Shown: positions 3,540 through 63,287 of the stretch, piece after piece | How the letters are laid out: every line of letters begins with the position of its first letter | Numbering within the stretch: the stretch's first letter is position 1 | IMG/VR virus record: IMGVR_UViG_3300013099_000017 | Location: 32,001 to 96,000 of that record | Strand: one strand, 5' to 3' | Source: a virus | Length of the DNA stretch: 64,000 nt | Program-made: the position numbers and the translations under genes | Notes under the pieces: generated by a model | Databases searched by the model: none | The model's input: the letters and a program-made list of their open reading frames with translations, nothing else | What the model was told of the DNA's origin: nothing

Positions 3540-3586
3540 TATACCCACAATGGGATATATACAATATTATGTGTGTCTGCTATAAT
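3540..3586 (+). promoter_or_regulatory. Class A cassette, core in inverted orientation
   Basis: TATACCCACAATGGGATATATAC right after stop; TATACA(3558-63)-17bp-TATAAT(3581-86) with TG extension. Confidence 0.75.
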
Positions 3587-3790
3587 GACGGAAATGATGA
3601 ATGAAAAACGAAAATGTGTTGTATGTTTGAAAGAAATTAAAAATTTTCATTCAGATTCATATCATATAACAATGGTTTTAAATGGTAAATTTATTAATGA
3701 TGCACATTTATGTTGTTCATGTTATTTAGAAAGTTTAAGATGTAAAAAAATTCCAATGATGGAATGATCAATAAAATAAAGGATTATATA

Positions 3791-4078
3791 ATGAGTAATG
3801 AAGCTATTACACTTTCACCAAATGATTTGGTGAAAATTAATGCGTTGATTCGTGATGTTAGTGAAACTAAAACTAAAGTTGAACTTTTCAATGAAAGTAT
3901 GAAAAGTTCAAAAAAAGCAATGGTTGATACTATGAAAGAATCCGGTTTAACGGCAAGTCGTTTAAATATAATGATTGGGTTATATCATAATAACACACAG
4001 GAAGAATATTTTAACGAACAATCAGACATTGAAACATTAATGGAAAATACTTTTCCAGACAAACAAGGAAGTGAATAA
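3791..4078 (+). CDS. dsbA: dsDNA-binding protein, T4 DsbA-like
   Basis: LNIMIGLYHNNTQEEYFNEQSDIETLMENTF resembles T4 DsbA C-terminus FNRLLALYHKDNRDVFEAETEEVVELYDTVF. Confidence 0.65.
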   Translation: MSNEAITLSPNDLVKINALIRDVSETKTKVELFNESMKSSKKAMVDTMKESGLTASRLNIMIGLYHNNTQEEYFNEQSDIETLMENTFPDKQGSE

Positions 4079-4398
4079 TGCAAGACAAGATAGAAACAAA
4101 TAAGTTATATTTGTTGGTATTAAAAACGGGTGAAAATTTATTAGCAACAATTACAGAAACAGATGGTGAATACATTTTTTGTGAAAATTTAGTTGCGTTT
4201 ATGCCTGATCAACAAGGTAAATTACTTACAATTCCATATTTACCATTCAGCTTAGAAGATAACTGCGAATTTAATGCAACTGATGATATTCGTCATATGT
4301 TGACTCCAAATGCAAAATTAACTGAATATTACAATACAACATTCAGTAAAATTATCATGCCTGATAATAATTTAATGAAACCAACGTTATTGCCTTAA
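4078..4398 (+). CDS. Conserved T4-like hypothetical protein (possible Sm-like fold)
   Basis: LVLKTGENLLA...PYLPFS pattern typical of small ORFs near gp43. Confidence 0.5.
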   Translation: MQDKIETNKLYLLVLKTGENLLATITETDGEYIFCENLVAFMPDQQGKLLTIPYLPFSLEDNCEFNATDDIRHMLTPNAKLTEYYNTTFSKIIMPDNNLMKPTLLP

Positions 4399-4404
4399 TA
4401 ATTG

Positions 4405-4437
4405 GATATACTCAGTTTTGTTGTAACTGAGTATATC
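4405..4437. repeat. 13-bp perfect inverted repeat (hairpin or terminator)
   Basis: GATATACTCAGTT-TTGTTGT-AACTGAGTATATC. Confidence 0.85.
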
Positions 4438-4456
4438 ATTATAACGTAATTTGAGC

Positions 4457-4485
4457 TTGCAATTTACCCAATTGTTTGCTATAAT
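4457..4485 (+). promoter_or_regulatory. Sigma70-type promoter upstream of the gp43 transcription unit
   Basis: TTGCAA-17bp-TATAAT with TG extension. Confidence 0.7.
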
Positions 4486-4511
4486 GTTTGAAATTTAAGG
4501 AAAAATATATC

Positions 4512-4868
4512 ATGAGTAAAAAGCAAAGTATAACTGAACGGATTCGAGATTATTATTGTTCATGGGATAATAAAAATGAATGGTTGGTTGAAAAGGGAAA
4601 GGTTAAAGAAGGACGTTTATTAAAAGAAGCATGTCTTGAAATTGAACGTCTTGAAGAATCTTATAATAAATTGAACGTAATTTATTATGACTTATACAGT
4701 AAAGATAGGTTTGATCGTGATAAACTAATTCAACCATATCAAGATAAGATTTATAAATTACATCATAAACTTCAAAACATATCTGAATATATTAAAAGTA
4801 TAGAATTTAAAAACAAAGATACTGCAAACATTATTCAATCAATGAAAAATACAATTGAGAAAAAATAA
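4512..4868 (+). CDS. Hypothetical coiled-coil protein
   Basis: ATG 4512 with RBS AAGGA, in ORF 4488-4868. Confidence 0.6.
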   Translation: MSKKQSITERIRDYYCSWDNKNEWLVEKGKVKEGRLLKEACLEIERLEESYNKLNVIYYDLYSKDRFDRDKLIQPYQDKIYKLHHKLQNISEYIKSIEFKNKDTANIIQSMKNTIEKK

Positions 4869-4895
4869 AATTAATTAATAATTTAAGGATAAATT

Positions 4896-12697: not shown

Positions 12698-13666
12698 ATG
12701 AAATATGTTAAATTTACAGGCAGTTTTAATAAATTAGAAGAACTTGGTTATGGTTATAAAACTTCCCATGGTGAAAAAGTTTTATGGGAAAAGGATAATT
12801 ATTCGATTTGGGTAAGTGGTTCATATTTACTGAATTCCGATCTTGATGATTATTTTCCTTTTATTGTGGAAAAGTTATTTACATTGGATATGGGTGATTT
12901 ACCATTTAGTAATATTAAAACTATTATAAATCCAAAAAAGATTATAGATAGTTTTTATCTGAATATTTATATACATTTAAAAACAAAAGAATGTAGTTTT
13001 AATAATCTTGATTTTGAGATTGGTCGTAAACTTGAACTTCAATCTTATCATGATGATAATAAATATTTTAATGAATGGGTTAAAGCATCCATTGATCCTA
13101 ATTCACTACAACCTTTAATTGAATTATATAATAAGGGTTGGGTTGAAATTGTAGAAGTTGATGTTGATGAAGAACTTGATTGGTTGTTAATAGACTAATG
13201 GAACGTGATGATGAAATATGTTAAATTTACCGGAAAATATGCAGAGTTAAATAAACTTGGATATAAATTTCAAAAACTGTATGCCAATAATTATCAACAA
13301 TGGAATAAAAAAGATTATCGTATTTGGCGAAAGGGTTCAGAAGTAACTCATGATGGTTTAGGTCAAATGTTCCCGTCTATTGTGGAAAAATTATTTACAT
13401 TGGATATAAGTAATCTTCCATTTACAGAATCAGAATATATTATAGATTATTTTTTTATGTTCATTTATGTTCATAGAAAAACCAATACATGTATGTTTGA
13501 TAAAACAGATTGGTTTATTGGAATGAAGCGTGAAGTTGAATCTTATCAAGGTGAAGATGAAACCCTGTATTATGATAATCCTTGGAAAAAAGTAATATTA
13601 TCGGAAAGTTCATTAAAACCTTTAATCGAATTATACAATAAGGGTTGGATTGAAATAACTGAGTAA
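12698..13666 (+). CDS. Tandem paralogous hypothetical pair (12698-13198, 13205-13666)
   Basis: Both MKYVKFTG...LGY, IVEKLFTLD..LPF, PLIELYNKGW.EI. Confidence 0.8.
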
Positions 13667-13753
13667 TATATCCCATTGTGGGTATATAAATATATAATTA
13701 ATTATGTAATACTATGTGTGTTGATTAAGAAAAACTTCCAAAAGGAAAAACAA
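13667..13753 (+). promoter_or_regulatory. Class A cassette with leader
   Basis: TATATCCCATTGTGGGTATATA...TGTAATACT...AAAACTTCCAAAAGGAAA; gene start ATG 13754. Confidence 0.8.
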
Positions 13754-14893
13754 ATGTCGATTTATGTATATTCAGCAACATCAAAAACTTTGCCATTATC
13801 AATTAATGGTGAAATTGTTCAAGCGACATATTACAAATATACCCACAATCAATCATTAGAAAATGATTATAATTGGTTTGGTGAAAAATCTAAGGGGATT
13901 TTTAGTAAAATAAAATATTGGGCTGATCGTGCATTATCAAAGGCAAAAAGAGATAATGTTAAATATGTTATTGTTGGTGATGATGAATATCCTGATTTTC
14001 CACGTTCCGTATTTAAAGTAAGTTATGTTGATGATTTATCTTCCTTTATTTGGGATCATGATCCTAATCATTTACATACCCGTCTTGGTAGTTATCAAAA
14101 ATCGAAAATTGGTAAACGTGTTGTATATTTACCTTTACCTTCATCGAAAGGAAATCATTAATGAACGTTAGAATTATAAAAATTGGTCAAAATGAATTCA
14201 ATGTGAATATCAAAGATGGTCAAGTTTCAACTGTCTCTACTGATTTGGTAGAGAATCTTACAACTGTTAATGTTAATGCAATTAAAGCTATTGTTGGTTC
14301 AAAATAATGAAAAAATTTAATGTATCATTCACTTATAGAGAAGAAGATTTTGATGATGTCTATGAAGGTGAAAGTGAAGATGATGTTATTGCTGTTATTG
14401 AGTGGAATTATGAAACGGATTCTTTTTATGATAATCACTATATAAGTAATTTAGAAATTGAGGAAATTGTAGAATGAATTATTATTCTTTTGTTGTGGAT
14501 ACAGATTCTTATGCTGGAAATTTTGAACGTGAAATGACAGCATATGTTACGGGTGTTCTTGGTGATTGTGAAGTTGGATTAGATGAATCGGTGTTGTTTC
14601 ATGATGAAATGGATTTAGATTTAGATGAATTGATGTATCAAAAACCAAATGAACAAGGTACTCTTAGACCATGTGCGATTGAAAATACAGGGATAGAAAT
14701 ATATGGTGGTGTTGCTATATATTTCTATGAAGATCCATGTGCATATCTTGATATGTTAAAAGAGCGTTCATTGGAATATGCTAAAAAGAATAACATTCAA
14801 ATATTTAGTTTTAGAGTTCAATATATTGAGGAAAGTATCAAAATTACAGAAATTGAATATGAATCATGTAAGGATAAATCATGGAACATTTAA

Positions 14894-14973
14894 TTGATTT
14901 AGATCAATGAAATTATATTCCAATGTGATATAGTATATCTGTAATTAAGAGAAACTTCCAAAAGGAAAATACA
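14894..14973 (+). promoter_or_regulatory. Class B cassette with leader
   Basis: TTGATTTAGATCAA (1 mismatch)...TGATATAGT...GAAACTTCCAAAAGGAAA. Confidence 0.75.
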
Positions 14974-15338
14974 ATGAGAATGACAGAACAAGTTATTGAT
15001 GATCTGATTGAAAAAATGCCAAGTGGTTCCGGTATTGATTGTGATTATAGTTGGACAAAATCAAATGGTAAATTAATCCTTCATAACTCATTTCATAATA
15101 TGAATGATGATGGTTATTATGATGGTTATTCCGAGTTTAAAGTTCATTTAATTTTGAAAGATGATGGGGAATGGATTTTAGATAAAATTCGTTTTGCCAA
15201 AAGTATTACAGATCCCTCCACTTACAGAAAATATTCAAATTATATATTACTTGATTATCTTTACGATACTTATATATGGAATATTGAAGAACGTAATTTG
15301 AAAGTTGGGGATTTTAATAATGCAATGGTAGATTTCTA

Positions 15339-15635
15339 ATGATTTTAGATGCTGATTATAATTATGGTGGTTTATTTGATTTTGTTTCTACTGCATTTCC
15401 TGAATATAAGAAAAATTCAAAATGGGGAAAACATAAAAGACGTTATGTTGAAATTTTGGAAATGAAATTCAAACATGATATGAATTTTGAAGAAATTGGT
15501 AATGAATTAATGAATTATCAAACTGGTAAAGTTGGTGTTTCATCAACAGCAGTAAGGGATTTATATAACAAAGCATTACGTTTATTAAAATCAAAAGGCA
15601 CAATACAAGAATTAAACATTGATAATTATATTTAA
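15339..15635 (+). CDS. Stand-alone sigma70 region-4-like HTH protein
   Basis: ILEMKFKHDMNFEEIG...VSSTAVRDLYNKALRLLK vs RpoD VLRMRFGIDMN..TLEEVG...VTRERIRQIEAKALRKLR. Confidence 0.7.
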   Translation: MILDADYNYGGLFDFVSTAFPEYKKNSKWGKHKRRYVEILEMKFKHDMNFEEIGNELMNYQTGKVGVSSTAVRDLYNKALRLLKSKGTIQELNIDNYI

Positions 15636-15678
15636 TTCTGTTATTATATAATCTAACTTATCCATTAAAGGAAACAAA

Positions 15679-16086
15679 ATGTCAAACTTTAAAAAATCTG
15701 ATGCAGTTCAATCATTAAAAAATTTAAAACCATTTGTTCCAGCTTTTCAGTTATCTATTTTAGCAGGACTTATTGATGGTGAAGAAGGTCAATATTTTAT
15801 TGATACTGTTGTTGAATTGGATTATTTAATTCAACAAATGCCAAAAACTTATGAACAGGATGGAAAGGGTGATCAAGCTGTTGCTTATTTACATTATTTC
15901 ATGGGTGGTATGGATTGGTACATTACTGAAAAAGATATGGAAGATGAACAGTTTCAAGCCTTTGGTTTAGCTAATCTTGGTTATGGTGCTGAACTTGGTT
16001 ATATTTCTATTGAAGAACTAAAAGCAAATAATATTGAAATTGATTTACATTTTACACCAACAATGGTTGGCAATTTAAAGAAATAG
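15679..16086 (+). CDS. DUF2958-like protein
   Basis: MPKTYEQDG..AYLHYF..DWYITE..AFGLANLG..ELGYISIEEL. Confidence 0.6.
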   Translation: MSNFKKSDAVQSLKNLKPFVPAFQLSILAGLIDGEEGQYFIDTVVELDYLIQQMPKTYEQDGKGDQAVAYLHYFMGGMDWYITEKDMEDEQFQAFGLANLGYGAELGYISIEELKANNIEIDLHFTPTMVGNLKK

Positions 16087-16396
16087 TGTTATACTTGTAT
16101 TTTATCACTTCACAGAAGGAAAACAAAATGTCCGATACTTATGACCAAGCTGAAAAAGCTATGAGAGATTTATTAGATGCTTCTAATGTTATGGGGTCTA
16201 ATGATGATATTGCTCAGGCTATTTCAAACGTGCTATTGAGAGAGCATAGAACGCTACAACAAGCATTTTTTCGTTCCTTTAAACAAGCTATGGATGGTTA
16301 TTCTAAAGGTGGCTCAGATGGTCGGAATGAGGGTGCTATTCAATTAGCAAAAGAAATCCATAACTCTGATGTTTATTTACCATTTGTTTAGGGAAT

Positions 16397-16556
16397 ATGA
16401 TTATGTATATTGTTCGTGATTTGGAAACGGGTCGTTATTTGATTAACCTATGATACAGTTGATGAAATTGAGAAAATTATCTTATCGTGGGATCATACTT
16501 GGCATGATTTTGAAGTTGTTAAATTAATTGTACATTCAAGAACAAACAGATCTTGA
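16397..16556 (+). pseudogene. Small ORF with apparent +1 frameshift
   Basis: MIMYIVRDLETGRYLI then YDTVDEIEK... continues in another frame; length 160 nt. Confidence 0.45.
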
Positions 16557-16632
16557 TCTAGATCAATGTAATTTTGGATAAATTTTAATATAATATAATC
16601 TGAATTGAGAAAAACTTCCAAAAGGAAATCCA
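16553..16632 (+). promoter_or_regulatory. Class B cassette with leader
   Basis: TTGATCTAGATCAA...TATAAT...AAAACTTCCAAAAGGAAA; ATG 16633. Confidence 0.8.
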
Positions 16633-16777
16633 ATGAACTTATTTGAATTAGACCAAATCATCAATCAACTGATTGAAGAAAATGATCCAAGTAATAATGA
16701 ATTAATTTCGTTTTATTACAGAAAACGTGATGAACTTGTTGTTGTCCTTTCTAAAAAAATTAATGAGATAATTAAAA

Positions 16778-17170
16778 ATGCCTAATGTTAATATTACCGT
16801 GTATCATGTGATTGTTGGTGAACTTAATGTTGCCAATTGGAAATTAATTCGTGAATTGGCTTATAAAGCTGAGGACAATAAAAAAAGATTAACTGATATG
16901 TTTATCAATGGTGATTATTTTACTGCCGTTGCAGATATTACTAATTCTACATTAGATGATGCTTATCGTTTAACCAATAGCATCGAAGAAGGTTGGTGGA
17001 AAAATGAAGAAGTTACCCCACTATTTAAAGCAAGTGGTGCAAAGTCAACTGATATCGGTGATATAATGATGGTTGAAATTCCACTTGAAGCAAAAACAGA
17101 AAATGATGCAATCGCTCACTATGAATTATATGTAGTTGCTCCGATTGGTTTTGTTAAAATTGATGGATAA
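16778..17170 (+). CDS. YodL-like phage protein
   Basis: LDDAYRLTN...W...KSTDIGDIM. Confidence 0.4.
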   Translation: MPNVNITVYHVIVGELNVANWKLIRELAYKAEDNKKRLTDMFINGDYFTAVADITNSTLDDAYRLTNSIEEGWWKNEEVTPLFKASGAKSTDIGDIMMVEIPLEAKTENDAIAHYELYVVAPIGFVKIDG

Positions 17171-17420
17171 TAATTATGTTAAGATTAAAAGTTAAAGCAG
17201 AGGGCGATACTGAACAAGATTTGGTTAATGCTCTCGAAGAAGTAATTCGTTTAGTTGAAATTGGCAACCGTGAAGGATTTGATATGAATACTTCCGGTGA
17301 GTTCAATTTTGAACTTGAAGAAGATGATCTATTATATTTTCCGGAAGCATAATGAAAGATTGGTAATTTTATTTAATTGTGTTATACTATGTACATATTA
17401 AGAACGGAAATTAATAAAAC

Positions 17421-17576
17421 ATGAAAAGGCTAAAGTTGAATCCTATGAAAAATCCAAGAAACCCATATTACAATCATCCTTTGATGTCTAAGTCTCATGC
17501 TCATGTAAAATCTGAGAAAGCTAAAAGACGTAAAAACAAGGTTGATTTAAATAAATCTGTTGAGCTGGAGAAATAA
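17421..17576 (+). CDS. Small basic protein (51 aa), not in ORF track
   Basis: MKRLKLNPMKNPRNPYYNHPLMSKSHAHVKSEKAKRRK...; upstream TGTTATACT and RBS. Confidence 0.5.
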   Translation: MKRLKLNPMKNPRNPYYNHPLMSKSHAHVKSEKAKRRKNKVDLNKSVELEK

Positions 17577-18099
17577 AATGTTAGAATATGGTGATAGATA
17601 TATCTTAATTGAACATGGTGATGTATTTGCAGGTGGTTGGGATCAATTAATTGATTGTTTTGGAATTGATTCTGAAACACTTGAAGAATTTTGTCGTTTC
17701 CATGATTACACATATACACTCAGTTTATATAATTCTGCCGATAAACTTAATAACGAATTACATAAGTTGTACAAGTATTTGAGCCAACCAAATGAAATTG
17801 TTGATTCCAGCAACAAAGATTATGATGATGGAATTGATACCGGATTTGAACATATTGCTGAAAAACTAAAAGTGATTATTGAAAGTTTTGAAAAGGATAC
17901 TTATTAAATGAATATTGGATCAAAGGTTTTAATTATTGGTGGTAATCATACAGGTGAATTTGGTACATATCTTTATCATAGTCATGATAGTGGTTATTAT
18001 GTGCCATTTGTTCTCTTGCCTGATGATCCTATTGATAAGTATTGTGGTGAACGTTTAAATATGAACTATCGTTGTGTATATGGTCGAGCAAGAAAATGA

Positions 18100-18205
18100 T
18101 ATATCCCATTGTGGGTATATACTCCATTGTTAAATTATGAGATACTATACTTGTGGTGAGGGGAAAGGTTCCCCAATTAGATAAACTTCCAAAAGGAAAT
18201 TCAAA
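18100..18205 (+). promoter_or_regulatory. Class A cassette with long two-hairpin leader
   Basis: Class A palindrome, TGAGATACT, TTGTGGTGA-GGGGAA-AGG-TTCCCC-AATTAGATAAACTTCCAAAAGGAAA. Confidence 0.85.
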
Positions 18206-18562
18206 ATGGCTTATATTAGCAACGAAGATGTTAAAGAAATCAGAAACAATATTAAGAAAGCATTTCCAATTAAAGAAGGTTGGAAATTTTCAATCAGAAG
18301 GCTTAATCACAGTGAAGTAAATGTAGCCATTATGCAATCACCAAAATCACACGGCTTTGAAGGTGATGAACAAGTTAATCAATATTATATTGATGAACAT
18401 TATAAAGATTTGCCATTACAAAGAGAAATGTTGTCTAAACTTAATGACATCATTAAAGAAAAATGGTGGGATGAATCAGATTCTCAGAGTGATTATTTCC
18501 ATTGTGCTTATTACTATACAATCCATATCGGTAAATGGAATAAGGATTGTGTTTCTGTTTAA
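18206..18562 (+). CDS. LPD29-like (polyvalent-protein-associated) early protein
   Basis: IRNNIKKAFP..KFSIRR...SDSQSDYFHCAYY..IHIGKW. Confidence 0.45.
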   Translation: MAYISNEDVKEIRNNIKKAFPIKEGWKFSIRRLNHSEVNVAIMQSPKSHGFEGDEQVNQYYIDEHYKDLPLQREMLSKLNDIIKEKWWDESDSQSDYFHCAYYYTIHIGKWNKDCVSV

Positions 18563-18649
18563 TTGATCTAGATCAATGTATTTTTTCTCAATCCTGATAT
18601 ACTGTATTTGTGATTGAGAAATAAGATAAACTTCCAAAAGGAAATCAAA
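18563..18649 (+). promoter_or_regulatory. Class B cassette with leader
   Basis: TTGATCTAGATCAA, TGATATACT, AGATAAACTTCCAAAAGGAAA; ATG 18650. Confidence 0.85.
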
Positions 18650-20487
18650 ATGAGTAATTTTAATTCTTCCGTTATAAAAGAAATCGCTAATTGTACCGAA
18701 TATAATGATCATTGTCGGGCATTGATATTAGCATCCAAAATGTTGGGATATAGCAAACTTGAACAAGTTTTTACAAAAGTTGGCGAAATAGCAAACATTG
18801 AAGGTGGTTATGATTCAAAATTGATGGAATATCGTTATTCCCGATATCAAGAGTTAATGCTTCTTGCAGAAAATGACTTAACTGGTTTACAATTTCAAAA
18901 TCTTTATGGAGCATTTTAAATGTATCAATCCACTATAACCAACACAAGAGATTTGAAAGTTACAATTTCAAAAGATAACGATATTCGGTTTAAAGTTCCG
19001 GAAGATAAACAGGATTTATATGATCTTGATTTAATCGCTGATAAATTGATGGAATATCCTGTTATTGTCGAATCAACATTAACACTCAGGGGTAAATTGG
19101 ACAAACATAAAAAAGTGTCATTAACTACTCAAAATGGTAGTAAAGCAAACAGAAAACGCAATCGTGTTTATACTGTTTTCTTTGAAGATGATGAAATTTA
19201 TGTCTGATAATTTTTTTTAGATATTGCAATATTAATAACAAAAATTTTACTTGCTTGTACCATTGGTCTAATTGTTATATTATTAGGAGCAAAATAATGG
19301 ATTCATATGATAAGTTTTTAAATGATATTGGTTCTTATGATGTTGTTTATCGTGATGTTAAAGTGGAAGATCAAAAGGGTGTTAATGATTACATCAACAT
19401 GATTTTGTTTTTTGAAGAATATGTTAATAGCATAGAAGTTTATACGGATATGTGGTTATCAACTGTCAATGAATGTCTTTATAGCCCAATTTGTGCATAT
19501 GAAGCATGTATTGTTAATGGAAATAAATATTATATAATTATTGGTATTGGAGATTAAATGTTAAAACGTGAAGAAAAAGTATTATATGATTTAATGGATA
19601 AGTGGAATACTCCAGGTGCAATGTCATATTCAGCAACAGCAGATTTTGATGAAGGGGTTGATATTGGTCGTGAAAATTGTGCAGATGAATTATTGTATGA
19701 ACTTGAAAAATTAATGAGGATTACTGAAAATGGTAAACTTAAATAGAAATTTAATAAAATCTCAAAATCTTACAGATACAGATATATTGGAATTAGAACA
19801 ATTACATGAAACCCGTGAAGCTCTATTTCAATTAATGGCAGATTTGGATATTGATGATGATTTGCCATTACTTAGAACATATGTTGTTTTACTTGAATCA
19901 CTTGAATATAACATGCAACGTGTCTGGAAATTTGAACAAAATAAAGACTATCATACATGGTGGTTTAGATCTCCACATTGTACATGTGGTTGTGGAAATC
20001 AATGTAAATTACATTCAGGGTTCGTGAATTCTGAACAAAATTCTGGTCTTATTTCAGCATTAAAAACTTTTCGCAATGAATTTACAAATTTATACAAATT
20101 GGGATTAAGTATTGTTGGTGGTAAACAGATTGAAGATGGATTATATACATCCGAGAAAACCGATCCAGAAAAAAGTTTAGCATTATATAATTCATATTTT
20201 AATGTGGAAGATGGTAAAATTGTTTCCGTTGGTGAAGAACGTGTGCGTGATGGTGGAATATTTTGGATAGCTAATAAATGAGTTGTGAATTAAATGAAGG
20301 TGTTCCTTGTGAAGATTGTACCCGTGATTATTGTCCGGATATGGTTAATGATGCATTAAGGGTGTGGTATGAGATTCATTCATCAATTGCATATCATGAA
20401 CAAAAAATTGAAAAACTTGAATATGAAAAAGTTGAATGGCTAAAAGAACATAAAGTTTTATTAACTTCATCAATATAGGAAATTAAA

Positions 20488-20808
20488 ATGAAAAAATTAT
20501 TATTAGTATCGCTTTTATTAATGAGTGGATGTTCGAGTTTACAACCATCCACATATACCAATTATAATACACCATATGGCAACGTGGTAAAGGCTACAGG
20601 TACGGCCGCAAATAACTCAGCCTTGGCTAACACAAGTTATAATTGTCCATCATGTGCCATTTCTGGTGGCAATGGTGGGGGTTCGAGAGGTATAACCAAT
20701 TATAATGGTCAAATGGATACGATGGGTAAAATTACCCATGATGCTATTCGTAGTTTATCATTTTCAATTTCAGACAAAATCAATGAATCAATTCGTGATT
20801 CATTTTAA
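20488..20808 (+). CDS. Predicted lipoprotein
   Basis: MKKLLLVSLLLMSG-C lipobox; CPSC motif. Confidence 0.7.
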   Translation: MKKLLLVSLLLMSGCSSLQPSTYTNYNTPYGNVVKATGTAANNSALANTSYNCPSCAISGGNGGGSRGITNYNGQMDTMGKITHDAIRSLSFSISDKINESIRDSF

Positions 20809-21843
20809 ATAAGGAAATATATAATGTTAGAAAAATATAAAGAAGGGGAATTAGAAAATGTAAGAAATCGCTTGTATTTTCTTCAAGATTTAAAAAATGT
20901 TTTAGAAAAACATAATGCTAATTTTGAAATTGAAACATTCCAAACCAGTGTGAAATTTACATATGATTTGAATAATGATGGTCGTAATAGTCAAGTTAGA
21001 AATTTATTAGCTGATTATTCAGGTGAAATTTGGGATGATGATATTCAACGTCTTATTGAAAATGAAGAAAAAGAACTTATATATTTAGGGAATTAAATAA
21101 TGCTGAATAGTTTAATTATTGATAAAAATCGTTTAATTTCTTTACAATCTACATTTTTAAGGGATGATCAATTTAATTATAATAAATTCGATAGTAATTG
21201 TGAATTAAGTGATTTAGATTTTCAAGATATTTATTTACTTAATAAAAATTTACTGATGAATTTGGATTTGTTTATTGTTACTGATAAAGATCAGTATGTG
21301 GTATTTAAAAATCGTGTTGATGGTAATACGGGAACAATCAAACAACTGAAAACATTAAAAAGTTATATTGCTTATTTGGAAAGTCATTATGATGAAAATT
21401 AAAAAAGTTTTGATGGATGTAAATGGTTTATATTATTGTGGTACACATGATAATAAAATTATATGGGATGATCATCCTGATTCTGCTACCGATATTAGAA
21501 ATTCCAATTGGGATTTTTATGGATGGGAAGTTGATATATTGGATAAAATGGTTTTAGAAGTTAAAGAATATGTGGAGTATTTTTCATGAGTAAGTTCAAT
21601 GAACGTAAAAGGCGTAAAATTGAATTTTTATGTGATTTAAATAATGTATTAATAAAACATGATGCAGAAATCATTGCAGATATTCAATCAACAAATGGTG
21701 GTATGGATGATGGGATGTTTATGTATTTCGATTTAAATCAGGGGGATTATTGTCAATTTGATCAAGAATTGGATCATGGGAATGTTGAATGTCGCATTGA
21801 TTCTAATACAATTTACAATATATTAAATAGATTAAATAATTAA

Positions 21844-21921
21844 TATATACCCACAATGGGATATATACGAAAATGATATAATGTGTTAAGATCATGATTA
21901 AACTAAAAAAAGGTAAATAAT
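21844..21921 (+). promoter_or_regulatory. Class A cassette, core inverted
   Basis: TATATACCCACAATGGGATATATAC after stop; TGATATAAT at 21874-82. Confidence 0.75.
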
Positions 21922-22188
21922 ATGATAAGTTCTAAACAGGTGATCGATTTACATCAAGCACTAAACAATGGAAAAACCATTATGGTTGAATTCCTTAAAG
22001 CAGATGGTTCAAGTCGTGAAATGACATGTGTTAATAGTCCGGAAGTTGCTGGAATTACTGATTGGGATTATAAAGGTGGTAAAAGTCCGTCAAGTGGCGA
22101 AAATCATCAAGTTGTGTTTGATGTTGATAAGAACGAATTCCGTTCATTCTTATATTCAACTGTTCAGAAATGGGCTATTACAAAATAA
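21922..22188 (+). CDS. DUF2693/WYL-like SH3-fold protein
   Basis: VEFLKADGSSREMTC...VFDVDKNEFRSF. Confidence 0.6.
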   Translation: MISSKQVIDLHQALNNGKTIMVEFLKADGSSREMTCVNSPEVAGITDWDYKGGKSPSSGENHQVVFDVDKNEFRSFLYSTVQKWAITK

Positions 22189-22587
22189 TCACTTGGGGTA
22201 TTAAATGACAAGTTGTAATGAGTGTAAAAAAACAGAAGAATGTCGTTATATAAATCTTGAAGAAACATGTTTAAGTTGTAAATTCGATACTATGTTTTTT
22301 AATTTTACTGATGTAGATCCATGCAATACATGTTTCCAAGGTTCAAATTATGTTGCATTTGTGGATTATTTCAATGATTAAATCTTCAATAATTAAACCA
22401 CTAATAATTGTAATTCTTGTTGCAATTTTATGTGGTTTAATATATGCTATGGTTGAAAGTAAGAAAAATACTTTCACATTCTTAGATTATCAGGCACGTT
22501 GTAATGATGCAGGTGGTGTAGTTGTTTTTACATTACCGGATTATACTTGTTATGAAAATCAAATAATAATTGAACGGTGAATCAATA

Positions 22588-22811
22588 ATGACAATGAATA
22601 GATTTATATTAAAAAATATAAAAACGGGACAATATCTTTGGATGTTGATCCTGAATCAGATCAAAAAATAAAACTTAATTTTACTGATGATATTAATGAT
22701 GCGTATTATTTTGATGATGAACAAATTTCATATCATCGTGAATATTATTTTGGTAATACAGATTATAAAAAATATAATCTTGAAATTGTTTATATTATGG
22801 GCGATAAATAA
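22588..22811 (+). pseudogene. Small ORF with apparent -1 frameshift near 22640
   Basis: MTMNRFILKNIKTGQYL then DVDPESDQKIKLNFTDDINDAYYF... in another frame, ending at TAATG overlap with next gene; 224 nt. Confidence 0.5.
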
Positions 22812-24089
22812 TGAAAAACGATATGTCAAAACTTGATTGGATTGTTGCTGGAACTATAACGTTTTTAATTGGTCTTGTGTTTATGGTTGCTATGATTAAA
22901 GGAGAGGCAAATAAAGAAATTTATGAAGATTTTAGTTCAGCCTGTTTAAAAGAAAATGGTATTGTTGTAAACAATAAAAACAAGATGGGGTTTGAGTGTT
23001 ATCAAAATCAAATTCTTGTTGATTATTATGATACATATAATAATCATGAGTAATTGGTATAAAGTCAAATATCTATTTTATAATGTATCTTTTGAAAGTA
23101 CATTAATTGCTGATAGCATTGAACAAGCTAAAACAAGATTAGGCAATAATATAACAATTATTGAATGGGAAATATTATGATTAGAATTATCGTTGATACA
23201 GAAAAAGAAAAAGAAAGATTATTAGAAGAATCTTTGTTTATTCATAAACAGAGACATATTGATATTAATTTTTGCAATACATTGGCTCATATATACACAT
23301 ATCCTGATATTATTGAAGTTACAAAAAAAGAGAAAACTGGTAGGTTTGTGTCATGATTACAGATAAAGCAATTGATACTGTAATGTGTGCGTTAGGATTG
23401 GAAAATTTTCTTAGGCGAAATATATTCAAACGTTGGTCAAATTATCAAGGTATCGTTAAATTTGAAGAAATTTGTGAACATGAAATTCAATGGTTTTTCC
23501 AAAGCCATTTATCAAAAAATATACATACATAAGGAACAAATAATGTTAATAAGAAGTGATATGTTATGTATGACTAATGTACAATGGAATAAATTTGAAT
23601 CCATTTTTGGTAAAGGTGATATTGTTGATTTATCAATAAAAAAATTATATGATGAAGTTGGTTTGATTTCATTTAAGACAGTATTAACAAATGAAGATGA
23701 AAATTTATTTATTCATTATTTATATCGGTACGATAAATTAAAAAGGAACACATGAAATGATTGAATGTTATTTTAGGTGGTGTGAACATCATTACAAAGA
23801 TGAACCATTTTGTAAATTAGATAAATGTGTTGCTACAAAAGAACAAATGATGAAATTTACGGAATTGAGAAAAGATGATTTAACCATCTTAGTAAAAAAA
23901 GATACCGAAGGGGTATTATGAAAGATCGAATGGAATATAATAAACGTGGTAAGAAATGGGTAATTACAAAACCCAATGGTGTGAATATTGCTTATACGTT
24001 TGATGAAATGGTTGAAATGAAAAACATTTTAAAACATTTAATTAAAATAGAACAACTTAACGAAATTAACAAAAAAGGGTAAATTTATT

Positions 24090-25076: not shown

Positions 25077-25089
25077 ATATGTATATGTG

Positions 25090-25097
25090 TATAAATA
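25090..25097 (+). promoter_or_regulatory. T4 late-type promoter motif
   Basis: TATAAATA followed by ATCCAAAAGGAAA leader variant and ORF 25116. Confidence 0.45.
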
Positions 25098-25996
25098 ATC
25101 CAAAAGGAAAATATTATGAAAGTTGTACCAATGTTAAATGAAGTGGGGAATGTAGTAAAGAACCAATACACTTATTATTTTGAAGGTTGTTATATACTTC
25201 AATCATATGATCGATGGACGGTAAAAATTGAAGGGGATGGTCAAATTTATCTTGATGAAAAATCATGGGATGCTTCAAAAACTACTGCAAAATACAGAAA
25301 TCAATTTTTGAATATGGGTACAAATGAAATTCATGAAAAAATTAAAACTGGTGAAATTAAAGTGATTAATCTTAATGGGGATTCATCATGAGTTCATTTT
25401 CATTTGGTAATAAAGTAAGAACTATGCAACGGGCAGATCTTGAACAATTGGTTTTTAAAATGGAAGATCAATTATTAAATGTAATTGATGATGAAGCTCG
25501 TCTTAATCAAGAGGGGGAGATTTTACCTGCTGACAGACAACCTGATCATGTTGCTGAAATTATGAGGTTAATTGAATTTTAATGGATACTCATACATATT
25601 TTGGTTTATGTGCAGATCATGATTGGGAATTTTTCAGAAACTATTTTAATTCTGATAATAAAGAACAATCTTTGAATGGTGAAGAAGAATCAAATACACT
25701 ACTTTATCATTATCGAAAATGTAGTGTATGTCGTGATATTTATGATGCTTGGTATACCTTTAAAATTATTAATAAAGGTGAAGGCATAAAACCAAATTTT
25801 GATGATTTTATAGGGGATGTTTATGAAGGAGTGGAAAACTCAAACGGATGCTAATAGCAACAAAAGCTGGAACAATAAATGCACTAATTATGATTGTCCG
25901 GAACATGTAAATAATTATCAAGTTGGTAATTGTAGACTTGGTATAAATTTCAGGGGATGTAAGATAGCTAAAAAAGCTAAAAAATATTTTAAATAA

Positions 25997-26054
25997 TATC
26001 CCATTGTGTAATAATATAATCTGAATTGAGAGAAAACTTCCAAAAGGAAATGAA
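25997..26054 (+). promoter_or_regulatory. Truncated class A cassette with leader
   Basis: TATCCCATTGTG then TATAAT and AAAACTTCCAAAAGGAAA. Confidence 0.7.
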
Positions 26055-27402: not shown

Positions 27403-27404
27403 AA

Positions 27405-39424: not shown

Positions 39425-39458
39425 ATGTGTGTAGGTTGAAAAACCATTTTTAAATTTG

Positions 39459-39486: not shown

Positions 39487-39487
39487 A

Positions 39488-43062: not shown

Positions 43063-43139
43063 TTATATCTCTTAATGGGTATATACATATATATCCATTT
43101 GCTGTATTATTTAGAAAAACTTCCAAAAGGAAAAATATA
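43063..43139 (+). promoter_or_regulatory. Variant class A cassette with leader
   Basis: TATATCTCTTAATGGGTATATACA...AAAACTTCCAAAAGGAAA. Confidence 0.75.
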
Positions 43140-44243: not shown

Positions 44244-45284
44244 ATGTTTAAATTTAAAAAATATGATAAAATTACTAATAGTTATGATGGTAAACATGTT
44301 CGTGCAGTAAAAATGGCTATGCTTGAACAAAACATAGAAGATGTGTGGATTGTTACTGAAAAAATTCATGGTGCTAATTTTGCATGTTATGTAAAGCCCA
44401 ATGAAGATTATATGGATGATACTCCATATTCAATTCAATATGCTTCACGTAATAACTTGTTAAGTGAATCTGAATCCGATGCTTTTTATAATTTCCAGTC
44501 TATTAAAGCAGACGTTAGTGAAAAAGTAAAAGAACTTTATAAAAATATATATGATGGTGATACTGCTGATGTTGATGAAATTATTGTTTATGGTGAATTA
44601 TTTGGTGGTTCATATGATCATCCTGATGTTGAACGTGTAAATCAATCACGGGTACAAAAAGGTGTCATGTATTGTCCGGATTTACATTTCAAGGCGTTTG
44701 ATATTTTTATACGTTATAATGATGGTGATGAAATGTATATGAATCCTGCGTTTTTTAATAAAATTTGTTTTGATGTGGGTGTTGATTATATTCCTGCAAA
44801 ATTGATTGGGACGTTGGATGAATGTTTATCTTATCAAAATGATTTTAATTCTTTGATTTATGTTGATTATGATTTACCTGATGTTGGTGAAAATACATGT
44901 GAGGGTGTTGTCATTAAACCCATATATCCATTTTATGACAATCGTGGCAATCGTGCTATTTTCAAGAACAAAAATGATAAATTCAAAGAAGTTGCAGGCG
45001 AACGTAAAAATAAAGTTACACAACCAATTGAATTATCGGATAAAGATAAAGAACATTTTGAATTGGTTGAACGTTATACCACAATGAATCGTTTGAATAA
45101 TCTTGAATCTAAAATTGGTGAACTTGAAGAAGCTAAACAAATTGGTGAATTCATGAAAGGTATGTGTGTTGATGTTAATGAAGATATCAAATTTGAACTG
45201 GATGTTTTATTAACTAAACGTGCCAAAGGTCATTTAATTAAAATGGTCAAAACTTTAATTATGGAAAAGTTATACAACACTTGA
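44244..45284 (+). CDS. rnlB: RNA ligase 2 (Rnl2 family)
   Basis: EKIHGANF, GELFGG, FKAFDI, EGVVIKP, FKNKN. Confidence 0.92.
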   Translation: MFKFKKYDKITNSYDGKHVRAVKMAMLEQNIEDVWIVTEKIHGANFACYVKPNEDYMDDTPYSIQYASRNNLLSESESDAFYNFQSIKADVSEKVKELYKNIYDGDTADVDEIIVYGELFGGSYDHPDVERVNQSRVQKGVMYCPDLHFKAFDIFIRYNDGDEMYMNPAFFNKICFDVGVDYIPAKLIGTLDECLSYQNDFNSLIYVDYDLPDVGENTCEGVVIKPIYPFYDNRGNRAIFKNKNDKFKEVAGERKNKVTQPIELSDKDKEHFELVERYTTMNRLNNLESKIGELEEAKQIGEFMKGMCVDVNEDIKFELDVLLTKRAKGHLIKMVKTLIMEKLYNT

Positions 45285-45322
45285 TCTAGATCAATGTAAG
45301 TTGGTATAACTTATGAGATACT
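45281..45322 (+). promoter_or_regulatory. Class B cassette
   Basis: TTGATCTAGATCAA overlapping stop; TGAGATACT. Confidence 0.75.
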
Positions 45323-45365
45323 AAATTTGTCGTTAAAACATTTAGACATTTAGGCATTTTGTGTC

Positions 45366-45396
45366 AGGGGGGATTTACAGCTCCCCTTCTTTTTTC
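45366..45396 (+). terminator. Terminator-like hairpin inside a 5' leader
   Basis: AGGGG-GGATTTACAGCT-CCCCT followed by TCTTTTTT. Confidence 0.45.
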
Positions 45397-45413
45397 TTTA
45401 AGGAATATATATA

Positions 45414-47812: not shown

Positions 47813-48224
47813 TTTTATTATTCTGTTGTGTTTGTTTGGTGAAGTTCAATCAAATCCTTTTATTGTTAGTGATGTTGGTCAATACCATAAAACAAATACA
47901 ATGGTTAATTATAATGTAAAACGTGGGATATTAGTTGTCAATAATATTGATGTTCTTTCACAGTATTATGTGAGTGGCAAATTTAAATTAATAACAGATA
48001 TACCTGCAATTGTATTTGAATTGGTTGAATATAATTATGTTCATGAATTTGAAAACCCTGAGTGGCAGGATAAACATTATTCGTTTTTTGATGGAAAAAT
48101 TTTAACTATCGAATATTTAACTATTGATGATGATTCAAATATTTGGGATGAACATTGGAATGTTGAACTTAAACATTTGGGTGGCAATATATTTGAATTG
48201 ATTAATTTAAATAAAGTAAAATAA
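47799..48224 (+). CDS. Predicted exported protein
   Basis: Hydrophobic N-terminus MKVISFIILLCLFGEVQS. Confidence 0.5.
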   Translation: MKVISFIILLCLFGEVQSNPFIVSDVGQYHKTNTMVNYNVKRGILVVNNIDVLSQYYVSGKFKLITDIPAIVFELVEYNYVHEFENPEWQDKHYSFFDGKILTIEYLTIDDDSNIWDEHWNVELKHLGGNIFELINLNKVK

Positions 48225-48289
48225 TACCCACAATGGGATATATATTATTTATTATAATTGTTATATAATAACACAAATGGAGAATTATT
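48225..48289 (+). promoter_or_regulatory. Class A cassette, core inverted
   Basis: TACCCACAATGGGATATATA immediately after TAA. Confidence 0.7.
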
Positions 48290-50831: not shown

Positions 50832-51416
50832 ATGAGTTCTACAAATAGAAATGCTGTAAGAAATAAAAACGATTATTATATTACACCAATAAATCAAATT
50901 GAATTATTTTGGGAACATTTTACTAAACATAATTATATTAATTTATATGATTCTGTTCTTGATCCTTCTGCTGGTGGTGATCCGGAACATCCTATTATGC
51001 CTTATCCAAGTGTACTACAATCTCATTTCAATCATCCAATAAAAACGATTGATATTCGGGAAGATAGTATTGCTGAAATCAAGGGAAATTATTTAGACTT
51101 GACAATGGATAAAAAGTATAATATAATCGTTGCTAATCCACCATTTAATTTGGCAATAGATTTTATTAAAAAAGCATTAAATGATGTTGCTATTGATGGA
51201 TATGTAATTATGCTTCTGCGTTTAAATTTCTTTGGTAGTGAAAAGCGTTATAACTTTTTAAAAGATAATATGCCCGAAGAATGTTATGTCCATTCTAAAA
51301 GAATGGGGTTTATTCCAGAACAACCAAATAAAACAGATAGTATTGAATATGCTCATTTTGTTTGGAGAAATAGACACAATAGGGATTATTCAACTAATTT
51401 AAGGATTATAAGATGA
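50832..51416 (+). CDS. N6-adenine/N4-cytosine DNA methyltransferase
   Basis: DYYITP, VLDPSAG, IVANPPF, MLLRLNF. Confidence 0.85.
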   Translation: MSSTNRNAVRNKNDYYITPINQIELFWEHFTKHNYINLYDSVLDPSAGGDPEHPIMPYPSVLQSHFNHPIKTIDIREDSIAEIKGNYLDLTMDKKYNIIVANPPFNLAIDFIKKALNDVAIDGYVIMLLRLNFFGSEKRYNFLKDNMPEECYVHSKRMGFIPEQPNKTDSIEYAHFVWRNRHNRDYSTNLRIIR

Positions 51417-55415: not shown

Positions 55416-55447
55416 ATGCATATTAAAAAAATAATGCTTGACAGGGG

Positions 55448-55475
55448 TTGACAAGATTTCAACTAGTGGTATAAT
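55448..55475 (+). promoter_or_regulatory. Near-consensus sigma70 promoter
   Basis: TTGACA-16bp-TATAAT with TG extension; second TTGACA at 55438. Confidence 0.8.
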
Positions 55476-55585
55476 TCCACTGTTAATAATGAATGTTAGG
55501 GATCTATAATATATTATGTAGAAGAAAAAGGTTTGCCTTTGGCAATGCCGTAGGCAGTTAATTAATGAATAATAAGGAATAAATA

Positions 55586-60444: not shown

Positions 60445-60452
60445 TATAAATA
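60445..60452 (+). promoter_or_regulatory. T4 late promoter
   Basis: TATAAATA 27 nt before ATG 60480. Confidence 0.7.
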
Positions 60453-60479
60453 GATAAAATAACTTTATAAGGTCAATTA

Positions 60480-61418
60480 ATGTTAAAATTCAAAAACTAT
60501 CTTGTTGAACAGGATTTATTAAATGAGAAACTATTATTAATTAATAGTGGTAAAAAATATGGACAGGTAGTTTTTCTTGCTGGTGGTGCTGGTTCTGGAA
60601 AGGGGTTTGCTGGAAATAATTTTATGAATATTCAGGATTTTAAAGTTCGGGATGTTGATGAAATGAAAAAAGCATATCTTACACTTAATAAATTGAGACA
60701 CAAATATCCTGAATTAGATGGACTTGATTTAAAAAAACCAGAAGATGTTTTTAAAATGCATGGTTTTATTAAGAAAAAAGGTACAGTTAAATCTACATTA
60801 GATAATATGCTTTCTGTTATTGTAAATCCAAACATTTTACCAAATATCGTATTTGATGTTACATTACAGTATGTTTCTAAAATTGATGATACCGTTCCAT
60901 TATTAATCAAAGCTGGATATAAACCCGAAAATATTCATATTATATGGGTGTTGACTGATTATGAAATTGCATTTAAAGCAAATTTGGAAAGGGATCGTAT
61001 TGTTCCTTATGGTAAAGATGGTACACCAAATATTATATTAGATACTCATGTTGGTGCAAGTAAAACAATGTGGAATATTGTTGGTAAAAATAATATTCCA
61101 AAATCAATTAATGGCGGTATTTATGTTATACTGAATAATCGTGATCAAACTATTGTATTTAAAGAAGGTGATAAAAAAGATTTCAGAACAGCAAAAGATG
61201 ATAAAGATGCACCAGCAAAAATAACAACAAGCCCTAGAAAATATGTTAGTAAAAGTAGTGAGAATTACAAAAAGAAAACTATCGTTGTTAAAGATTTCAC
61301 ATATTTAACATATAAAGAACCTGGGAAGGCTCCCAAAAAAGATAAAGAAATTTATAAACAGTTATTTGGATGGGTTAAAGCTAATATTCCAAAATCAGCA
61401 TTAAAATTCATTAATTGA
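60480..61418 (+). CDS. Zeta-toxin/AAA_33-like P-loop protein with capsid-targeting-like N-terminus
   Basis: MLKFKNYLVE..LNE; VVFLAGGAGSGKG; IVFDVT; A..AN..RDRIVP. Confidence 0.65.
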   Translation: MLKFKNYLVEQDLLNEKLLLINSGKKYGQVVFLAGGAGSGKGFAGNNFMNIQDFKVRDVDEMKKAYLTLNKLRHKYPELDGLDLKKPEDVFKMHGFIKKKGTVKSTLDNMLSVIVNPNILPNIVFDVTLQYVSKIDDTVPLLIKAGYKPENIHIIWVLTDYEIAFKANLERDRIVPYGKDGTPNIILDTHVGASKTMWNIVGKNNIPKSINGGIYVILNNRDQTIVFKEGDKKDFRTAKDDKDAPAKITTSPRKYVSKSSENYKKKTIVVKDFTYLTYKEPGKAPKKDKEIYKQLFGWVKANIPKSALKFIN

Positions 61419-61423
61419 TGATA

Positions 61424-61518
61424 TATATCCCATTGTGAGTATATACATTAACATTTAATAATGTGATAATAATCCTGTAGTGAGAGATAGCGTTCCCATT
61501 TAAAGAAAAGGAGTCGAT
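61424..61518 (+). promoter_or_regulatory. Class A cassette
   Basis: TATATCCCATTGTGAGTATATACA; TATACA-17bp-GATAAT with TG extension. Confidence 0.8.
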
Positions 61519-61722
61519 ATGAGTTATTCAGTTGTTCATTCCGAAAGATATTTAGTTGATAAAAAAGAAACAGAATATTCTAGTCTGGAAAAAATCAAAG
61601 AACGTTATTCCGTTTATTGGAATTATGTTAAAGATGAAATTTCTGCTCTGAATGTTGGTGATAGTGTTGATGTTCATTATGATGATTATGTTTCTCTGAA
61701 TGTTAAAAAAGTTTCTTAACTC

Positions 61723-61822
61723 TTGATCTAGATCAAGGTAAATATCCTCTATCATTGATATACTATATTTGTGGTGAGGGAATTGTTCCCAAAATAGAAA
61801 AACTTCCAAAAGGAAATTCAAA
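61723..61822 (+). promoter_or_regulatory. Class B cassette with long two-hairpin leader
   Basis: TTGATCTAGATCAA; TGATATACT; GGGAA-TTG-TTCCC; AAAACTTCCAAAAGGAAA. Confidence 0.85.
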
Positions 61823-62398
61823 ATGAAAGCAACACATAAAGGTACTTGTCAATGTTGTGGTGCAATGCAAAAACTTCCAAATGGCGTATTATCTAATCAT
61901 GGTTATACAGTTGATTGGGGTATGTTCAATGGCACTTGTCAAGGTGCAGGTCATAAGCCTTTTGAAAAATCAACAGATTTAATCGAAAGTTTCATAAATC
62001 AAGCCAAAGCTCAAATCGAAAATTTAAACAATGAAATCAGTGAAGTTTCTAATTCAACTGATGTTAAATCGGTTTGGTATCGTAAATATATTCCTGCAAC
62101 ATACAGCAAACAAGCACATTATGTTTGGGAAAAACGTGGTTTATTATTAGATAAAGTTTATTCTGAAAGATTTACTTCTTGGAAATGGGATAGTTTACCA
62201 ACTGATACCAAAGACGTTAATCGTGGTAAAACAGGTGTTGGTGATCATAAACCAAATCCCGATGATGCAGTTAAATTTGAAAATGAAAAATATACCGCAA
62301 TGTTAAGCAAAAAGGTTCAAGGTATTGAAGGTTATATCCAATGGCAAGAAGAACGTATTTCCGGTTGGACTGAGCAACCTTTACAGGAAATTAAATAA
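61823..62398 (+). CDS. Conserved phage hypothetical protein (Cys/His motif)
   Basis: GTCQCCG...HGYTV.WGMFNGTCQG. Confidence 0.6.
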   Translation: MKATHKGTCQCCGAMQKLPNGVLSNHGYTVDWGMFNGTCQGAGHKPFEKSTDLIESFINQAKAQIENLNNEISEVSNSTDVKSVWYRKYIPATYSKQAHYVWEKRGLLLDKVYSERFTSWKWDSLPTDTKDVNRGKTGVGDHKPNPDDAVKFENEKYTAMLSKKVQGIEGYIQWQEERISGWTEQPLQEIK

Positions 62399-63184
62399 TG
62401 TTAAAACCTAGAATTGCTAAACTGAAAAAGGATACTCAATTAAAAATTAAACGATATGTAAATTTTCAAGAACAATATATTGGTGAAGTTGGGGATAAAT
62501 CTCCAACATATTTTTTATTCTTGAAACGCATGGAAAAACAATATCATAAAACCCTATCCACAATAAATAAACTTGGATCAAATTAAATGGATGATACATT
62601 AACAATATCGGAAAAGATAAAAGAAGCTCAATATTATTTTAATACTTATTCTGAAACTGTCCGACTATATGAAGAAATTCATGGAGTCGGTAATTATTCA
62701 CCTAAACTAACTGTATTATACACACTGGAATCATAAAATGGATATTGAAGAAATAAAAAAAGAACACAATTATATGTTGGATAGTTATTCAAAACAACTA
62801 AAAACATATCAAGATGAAAATGGATGTGATGATTATCCTGATTATATGATGTATACAATTAAATTGATAGAATTTTATCGTGGTACTTTGACTATATTAA
62901 ATCGAATTGAAAATGGTGTATTTAAATGAATATACAGAATATCTTGTTTACCGATTACAAATGGAAGAATATTATCGTGGTGTTTGGAACACATTAAATG
63001 AACTTAAACGGGGTGCATAATGAAAAAATATAAATTCTCTGTTATTTATTTCATCTATAATGAAGAAGATGAAATAAAAAAAGTTATTGATGTTATGTAT
63101 GGCTCAGGACATCAATCAGTTGTAGATGAAATCAAAAAACTGGAAAATTTTGTCACTATGGTTTATATTGGAGTAATTGAGTAA

Positions 63185-63287
63185 TATATCCCATTGTAGG
63201 TATATATTTATCAATATAATTGTGAGATACTATACTTGTGGTGAGGGGATTTCCCCAATTAGATAAACTTCCAAAAGGAAATAAATC
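63185..63287 (+). promoter_or_regulatory. Class A cassette with long two-hairpin leader
   Basis: TATATCCCATTGTAGGTATATA; TGAGATACT; GGGGA-TT-TCCCC; AGATAAACTTCCAAAAGGAAA. Confidence 0.85.

Follow-up and report, generated by a model that had tools for sequence, protein, structure and literature searches.

The stretch of DNA analysed here, in the following called the window, comprises 64,000 nucleotides and corresponds to bases 32001-96000 of the 144,243-bp IMG/VR virus record IMGVR_UViG_3300013099_000017, which has a GC content of 29%, is 79% complete according to CheckV and to whose 144,243 bp all whole-record counts refer. Nearly all genes are carried by the + strand, and the subject of this report is a recurrent intergenic unit between them, a cassette composed of a short palindrome, a predicted -10 element and a leader. 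Besides a gp33-type late coactivator the genome encodes a clamp loader, a family B DNA polymerase, RNA ligase 2, a DNA ligase and RegA. Since these genes are of T4 type, the DNA polymerase shares no more than 41% identity with those of cultured phages (cyanomyoviruses being the nearest) and DNA of the phage is present in sediment metagenomes, the sequence is assigned to an uncultured, distant T4-like phage. A megablast search of the sequence against phages gave no match, and an identical 313-amino-acid protein is encoded by four contigs, the longest of which has 207,615 bp.

Each cassette fills the gap between the stop codon of one gene and the ATG of the next. The order of its parts is stop codon, palindrome, about 12 non-conserved bases, the motif TG-n-(G/T/A)ATA(A/C)T, an optional hairpin, the leader and ATG, and the predicted promoter points in the direction of the genes in all copies. 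A preliminary description of the window had placed 21 such cassettes in two classes, A and B, according to the palindrome. The elements it named are present at all 21 positions, and, as it had claimed, most copies begin close to the upstream stop codon (0-7 nt away in 18 of 21). The 18-mer core of class A, with up to three mismatches, gave 11 matches in the window against 0.08 expected, and TTGATCTAGATCAA of class B gave five true copies against 0.9 expected. The leader AAACTTCCAAAAGGAAA, which many copies had been said to carry, was matched 13 times against 0.95 expected. A genome-wide motif search with a looser template, which had been proposed as a check, yielded 25 class A and six class B intergenic copies in the whole record, far above chance. 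These 31 cassettes are confined to 24-109 kb and 131-144 kb of the genome; none lies at 1-21 kb or 109-131 kb, and two late/structural blocks are free of any cassette. Within the window, the modules delimited in this way hold between 1 and 24 genes each.

Downstream of the -10 element, about ten genomic cassettes carry a TGTGGT-n-GGGG-loop-CCCC hairpin in the 5' untranslated region (5'UTR). No double compensatory changes were found in a search for covariation in these hairpins, so that their predicted RNA structure rests on invariant stems and variable loops. The leader itself is conserved over 17 nt and reads AGATAAACTTCCAAAAGGAAA, followed by 3-8 nt and ATG.

For an analysis of the geometry the class A copies were aligned on the centre of their dyad, defined as TATAYCC-N6-GGRTATA. 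In 19 of the 25 a strict match to the -10 motif begins exactly 31.5 nt downstream of this centre, where the background is 1.9% per position, and the other six show near-matches at the same offset, which bears out the earlier reading of the units as promoter cassettes. The offset is identical in forward, inverted and symmetric forms of the palindrome and the sequence of the spacer is not conserved; a constant length combined with a varying sequence points to selection on geometry and not to recent copying. In class B the -10 element begins 28.5-29.5 nt downstream of the centre. Under the assumption that the -10 hexamer spans -12 to -7 and that transcription starts 7 nt after it, the predicted centres are located at about -43.5 for class A and at -40.5/-41.5 for class B. 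The right arm of class A supplies TATACA, which agrees with the -35 consensus at four of six positions and stands 17 bp before (G/T/A)ATA(A/C)T as had been described, and about 14 of the 21 cassettes in the window show a TG extension. No -35-like hexamer is present in class B. That two palindromes are mounted on one chassis, a further statement of the preliminary description, is evident from the class B copy at 61723 and the class A copies at 18100 and 63185, which are nearly identical downstream. The sequence, copy number and geometry of the cassettes, like their conservation in relatives and their concerted evolution described below, are direct observations.

What we infer from them, in turn, is that the cassettes act as promoters, which proteins bind them and when their genes are expressed. 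As canonical TTGACA-N17-TATAAT promoters and T4 late TATAAATA promoter boxes also occur in the genome, the cassettes are predicted to form a promoter class of their own, with an upstream site in the place of the -35 element. We regard their function as promoters as very probable. It is supported by a relative, L009 (equal to L140), in which a class A palindrome and a -10 element lie 28 nt upstream of a tRNA-Glu gene and the ribosome-site leader is missing. A sigma-70 promoter scan was uninformative at 29% GC (157 sites against 145 expected). According to the proposed mechanism, the host sigma-70 RNA polymerase would start about 7 nt after the TG-extended -10 element and would do so with no good -35 element, while a dimeric regulator would bind the palindrome as double-stranded DNA at a class II position. 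Two types of palindrome bound in this manner by dimeric regulators would give rise to two regulons. Class A, in either orientation, would be read by a putative dimer of phage or host origin, and class B (TTGAT-N4-ATCAA) by a host protein of the FNR/CRP family, which would tie six modules to the oxygen or redox state of the host. With moderate confidence we take promoter/stem-loop cassettes of the published type (PeSLs), made up of operator, promoter and leader and forming two regulons, as the best overall explanation.

The classical view of PeSLs would assign the palindromes a different role, namely that of stem-loops in RNA or single-stranded DNA which terminate, attenuate or stabilise the 3' ends of upstream transcripts and insulate the modules, the promoter simply coming next. 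The stem-loops of the PeSLs of RB49 and phi1 were indeed shown to terminate transcription (PMC2839356), the palindromes start at the stop codon as a terminator might, and the symmetric variant of class A (A') as well as the inverted class A fold better than shuffled sequences (z about -3.5). Furthermore, dyad position 5/16 stays paired, as T.G in this genome, as C-G in relatives and in two copies as T-A. Forward class A, however, folds no better than shuffles (z = -1.0), and class B, which takes the same slot, forms no stable hairpin: the folding energies of the palindromes as RNA are -7.8 to -8.9 kcal/mol for class A and only -2.8 kcal/mol for class B (z = -0.25). No palindrome is followed by a U tract, and none was called a terminator in a generic terminator scan, whereas the real terminators of this phage are GC-rich and U-tailed, and one of them stands directly before the class A copy at 30207. 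In six of the 25 class A copies a G in the GGG arm is replaced by A without compensation in the stem, with spacing and -10 element retained, and the loop sequence is conserved. Finally, the exact distance of 31.5 nt to the -10 element is nothing a terminator needs. The GGGG..CCCC hairpin falls inside the predicted transcript of the cassette itself. In view of their weak folding, the missing U tract and the stem changes that go uncompensated, the palindromes are read here as operators and not as terminators, which leaves the classical stem-loop role unlikely; that they serve as operators for two dimeric regulators is, in our estimation, probable.

A simpler possibility is that no regulator is involved at all, and that the host polymerase reads TATACA together with the TG-extended -10 element, the palindrome being AT-rich DNA that was kept by copying. 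TATACA does lie 17 bp from the -10 element in both orientations of class A, about two thirds of the copies have the TG extension, and the searches of the 144 kb for regulator genes found none. This account does not explain, on the other hand, why class B carries a perfect 14-bp palindrome and yet has no -35-like hexamer at the right distance, nor why the left arm and the CCC/GGG core of class A are conserved across phages with unrelated genes. Dyad symmetry and free orientation are not traits of -35 or UP elements either. Unregulated promoters are considered improbable, somewhat more so than the terminator role.

The motif TTGATnnnnATCAA, which is the consensus of FNR, a regulator whose class II activating position is -41.5 (+/-4) (Myers et al. 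2013, PMC3688515), is matched by all six intergenic class B copies and occurs at eight sites of the genome against 1.8 expected; the six intergenic sites all precede a -10 element. Judged by its letters, class B is a perfect match to the FNR box, and we give FNR-type control of this class about even odds. In analogy to the class II FNR promoters of Proteobacteria, class B fits the consensus in six of six copies, would be centred near -40.5/-41.5 if transcription starts 7 nt after the -10 element, and has no usable -35 element; unlike in these promoters, the setting is the genome of a lytic phage and the central CTAG is conserved as well. No description of FNR boxes in T4-like phages was found in the literature. 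For comparison, T4-like cyanophages contain many sites for NtcA, a regulator of the CRP family (Sullivan et al. 2010, PMC3037559). Both cases involve a T4-like phage with many sites for host CRP/FNR-family proteins in front of genes, whereas the box of the cyanophage promoters is GTA-N8-TAC and no repeated cassette with a shared leader was described for them. The class B box also holds two GATC sites, and a Dam-like gene is located at 50832-51416; its product, if it methylates GATC, could affect binding to class B.

A literature search for the class A motif returned only unrelated primers. The likeness of one arm of the inverted class A palindrome to a DnaA box was judged a coincidence. As candidate DNA-binding regulator we note a protein of 98 amino acids (15339-15635), encoded in the module of the class B cassette at 14894, which weakly resembles sigma-70 region 4 (Pfam E = 5e-4, a score below the cut-off) and has no match in PHROG. 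On the side of translation, UUCC of the leader would pair with GGAA of the ribosome site. The leader may also be a target of the phage translational repressor RegA, whose gene lies at 2468-2920 (Pfam E = 8e-34), and the 17-nt leader is plausible as a common RegA target. A trans-acting RNA that recognises the leader was dropped as a candidate, as there is no antisense copy of the leader in the genome.

Several observations weigh against regulation by two operators. Searches for the MotA (motA) and AsiA genes found neither in the 144 kb, PF09114, PF09158 and PF09010 being absent, and among 123 small proteins of the window scanned against Pfam there was only the one weak sigma-70 region-4-like match, so that the MotA, AsiA, CRP/FNR and Pfam searches together provided no regulator for class A. 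Nor was a gene of the CRP/FNR family detected in the 144 kb of this 79% complete record, which means that a host protein would have to be the reader of class B. FNR control of class B would require that the host of the phage possesses FNR; the conserved central CTAG of class B is not needed by FNR; and no class B copies were seen in about 45 kb of relatives. For class A, TATACA and a TG-extended -10 element may suffice without an activator. A start exactly at the stop codon is also expected of a terminator or 3'-end hairpin, as in published PeSLs. Among the listed RNA sequencing runs none contained DNA of the window.

Relatives that carry the cassettes were identified by exact-motif and protein-anchored scans and form a small clade, all from sediment-type samples. 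L080 (equal to L120) is syntenic with 37.2-52.7 kb of the window at about 70-80% nucleotide identity; L096, L138 and L126 bear cassettes as well, and L009 has the cassettes in common with this genome and no genes. In L009 (1421-5569) ten tRNA genes form an array interleaved with cassettes. More distant phages that share single genes, reached by protein-anchored searches, showed no such cassettes. Most exact matches to the class A core in viral contigs were rejected as coincidences in the coding sequence of an unrelated conserved gene (L010-L017), so that searches by motif alone are polluted; scans with the leader and of metagenomes gave mostly single chance matches.

The comparison with these relatives unveiled exchange between cassettes. 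At dyad position 5, 17 of 17 copies of this genome have T, and five of six copies of L080, L096 and L138, which stem from one sample, have C (p = 1.8e-4). The 5'UTR variant TGTGGT-n-GGG is found in ten copies here and TGTGTTGGTTGGGG in five copies of the relatives, with no overlap (p = 3.3e-4). Moreover, all four positional orthologues are closer to paralogues of their own genome than to each other. By these patterns the cassettes evolve in concert within each genome. Class and orientation can change at an orthologous site: the cassette after RNA ligase 2 is class B in this genome (45281) and class A in L080, and the palindrome after the gene at 32371 is forward here and inverted in L126. L138 is without both the gene 14474-14893 and the neighbouring class B cassette (14894) and holds one additional class A cassette, and in L096 a single gene is flanked by two cassettes that are 95% identical over 100 nt.

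Such exchange might suggest that the units are recombination or mobility sites in the first place, at whose palindromes a site-specific recombinase or a nuclease would act to move gene modules, with the likeness to promoters being secondary. The concerted evolution, the exchange of class B for class A, the inverted palindrome and the nearly identical cassettes on both sides of one gene in L096 would all fit. Contrary to this, and to the preliminary description, which had expected the endpoints of insertions and deletions at cassettes, breakpoints of gene gain, loss or replacement relative to L080 were not enriched there: they fell on two of four cassette junctions and 13 of 29 others (33 junctions, Fisher p = 1). 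L080, about 70% identical, was the only relative available for this test and is far more distant than the 96% identical pair that defined the PeSLs; at this distance the outcome is the one that the preliminary description had named as refuting, with endpoints of insertions and deletions that do not coincide with cassettes. Single insertions, deletions or replacements that abut cassettes do exist in L138, L126 and L080. Exact matches between cassettes of this genome reach only 32 bp, no recombinase is linked to the cassettes, and their fixed promoter geometry would be left unexplained. Contig joints at cassettes in four DNA runs (window 13000-32999) were rejected as deletions, since their sides were shorter than 30 nt; some carried the sequence of another cassette copy between the sides, a sign of cross-mapping between paralogous or related cassettes. 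Altogether a primary role in recombination appears very improbable. Of the earlier idea of a recombination scaffold, preferred endpoints of insertions and deletions are not supported, while gene conversion between cassettes is supported by the concerted evolution and the swaps of class and orientation at orthologous sites. Contigs from short reads in public runs end or overlap exactly at the leader (18179-18198 and 30269-30295), which indicates that the cassettes fragment assemblies of this phage clade; the repeats break short-read assemblies of the phage at predictable places.

The individual cassettes of the window are all on the + strand. The forward form of class A (A+) is present at 13667-13753, where the cassette begins at the stop codon and combines an AATACT -10 element preceded by TG with the leader; at 18100-18205 and 34223-34324, both with 5'UTR hairpin (GGGG..CCCC in the former) and leader; at 32728-32810, whose orthologous site in L126 has the inverted form; and at 36957-37038. 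Three copies are the reverse complement (A-; 3540, 21844 and 48225). The first of them (3538-3600) has a TG-extended TATAAT, the second (21844-21921) carries TGATATAAT 10 bp nearer than usual and a weaker TGTTAAGAT at the canonical offset, and the third (48223-48289) is retained, likewise inverted, at the orthologous site of L080. The more symmetric A' variant, TATATCTCTTTTGGGATATATA, accounts for four copies: 39378-39487, whose orthologous cassette is retained in L080; 56209-56291, at the stop codon and with leader; 43063-43139, also with leader and with an adjacent upstream gene that is replaced in L080; and the degenerate 30871-30945. A GAG variant of the right arm is found at 30207-30294 (the true intrinsic terminator just before it spans about 30170-30203), a GAG variant also at 61424-61518 (hairpin-like 5'UTR) and an AGG variant at 63185-63287 (hairpin and leader). 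A truncated class A cassette with intact leader occupies 25997-26054, its left half-palindrome being joined to the -10 region (25997-26020); a second fusion of this type lies at genome 105124-105145, and both look like the result of a deletion between short TGTG repeats of the palindrome and the extended -10 element.

Of the class B cassettes, that at 14894-14973 has the FNR-type box TTGATTTAGATCAA at the stop codon, followed by TATAGT with TG and the leader; 16553-16632 shows a perfect TTGATCTAGATCAA, TATAAT and the leader; 18563-18649 again begins at the stop codon and contains TATACT with TG and the leader. The copy at 61723-61822 has the -10 element, hairpin and leader part in common with the class A copies at 18100 and 63185. 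In the copy at 45281-45413 about 75 nt lie between the promoter and the ribosome site of the next gene, and they close with a strong terminator, a GC hairpin with a U run (about 45365-45397); this element could be a small RNA or a transcription attenuator. At the orthologous site of L080 the class A cassette is accompanied by an extra gene of 90 amino acids.

Three genes of possible relevance for the host defence lie in cassette modules. The S-adenosylmethionine (SAM) lyase gene (37285-37914), in the module of the cassette at 36957, scores above the Pfam cut-off; the matches of the ArdA-like gene (30946-31494), which the degenerate A' cassette directly in front of it is predicted to drive, and of the Dam-like gene are weak. 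All three would fit early anti-restriction functions. Two tRNA genes are found in the window (27323-27399 and 31505-31576). Two almost identical copies (window 55430-55490 and genome 134690-134745) represent another repeated promoter unit, unrelated to the cassettes, in which two overlapping TTGACA boxes are combined with a perfect TGG/TGT-TATAAT. In L080, a replacement of 0.8 kb without a + strand gene (2942-3728) ends in a canonical TTGACA-N17-TATAAT; partly similar to genome 23398-23518, it may be a mobile minus-strand gene. A gene just outside the window is a putative gene for a gp55-like late sigma factor, judged by eye by its likeness to the T4 sequence. Just upstream of L208 3390-3470 (genome 24389-24469), a segment that precedes the window, there is a further palindrome, TTGACATATGTCAA, and for this reason the factor that binds class A might act as a repressor of the late sigma gene.

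The published PeSLs combine an AT-rich start with a sigma-70 promoter and a Shine-Dalgarno sequence; their G-run/C-run stem-loop has no set place and can also follow the -10 element. They cluster in variable regions, and recombination takes place between them (Arbiol et al. 2010, PMC2839356). They were later extended to three T4 subgroups and a Mot-box variant (Comeau et al. 2014, PMC4122927). The likeness to PeSLs, recognised already in the preliminary description, extends to the anatomy (AT-rich start, promoter, G-run/C-run stem-loop, Shine-Dalgarno sequence) and to the concentration in variable regions. As in the PeSLs of RB49/phi1, T4/PST and KVP40/nt-1, the sequence variants are specific to lineages and some gene swaps abut cassettes. 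Since the layout matches, the cassettes belong, by their architecture, to a kind that is already known. In contrast to published PeSLs, the -35 element is not sigma-70-like, its position being taken by either of two conserved palindromes with an invariant class II spacing, the -10 element is TG-extended, the leader at the ribosome site is a conserved 17-mer, terminator activity of the palindrome is unlikely from its energy and context, and breakpoints relative to a 70%-identical relative are not enriched at cassettes. New in this comparison of layouts is the geometry, with operator-like palindromes held at a constant class II spacing and of two interchangeable types, one of them an FNR box. 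T4 middle promoters, with a MotA box and a -10 element, and the PmSL of nt-1, which builds this pair into PeSL-like units, provide a second parallel, as there too an activator site replaces the -35 element before an extended -10-type box. They differ in that the aligned cassettes contain no TGCTT Mot box (at -30), the 144 kb hold no motA/asiA, and the sites here are palindromic and located further upstream.

It is through PeSLs that T4-type phages are generally held to carry and express their variable genes, and the same cassette design is met here in a very distant uncultured marine/sediment lineage, with a DNA polymerase 41% identical to that of the nearest cultured phage. Six FNR-box promoters and 25 promoters with the predicted class A operator on one chassis make up a testable design. 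That a strictly lytic T4-like phage of anoxic sediment wires about 30 accessory modules, those with the SAM lyase gene and the weak ArdA-like match among them, to two interchangeable operators, one for FNR and one for a putative dimeric factor, is put forward as a tentative and rather doubtful proposal. If it is true, the "stem-loop" of a cassette may serve as an operator and cassettes would mark out regulons; the redox state of the host would decide which accessory genes are expressed, and gene conversion, by swapping operators between cassettes, would transfer a module between the two regulons. A lytic phage would then tie its accessory genes to the oxygen regulator of its host, as cyanophages appear to do with NtcA for nitrogen.

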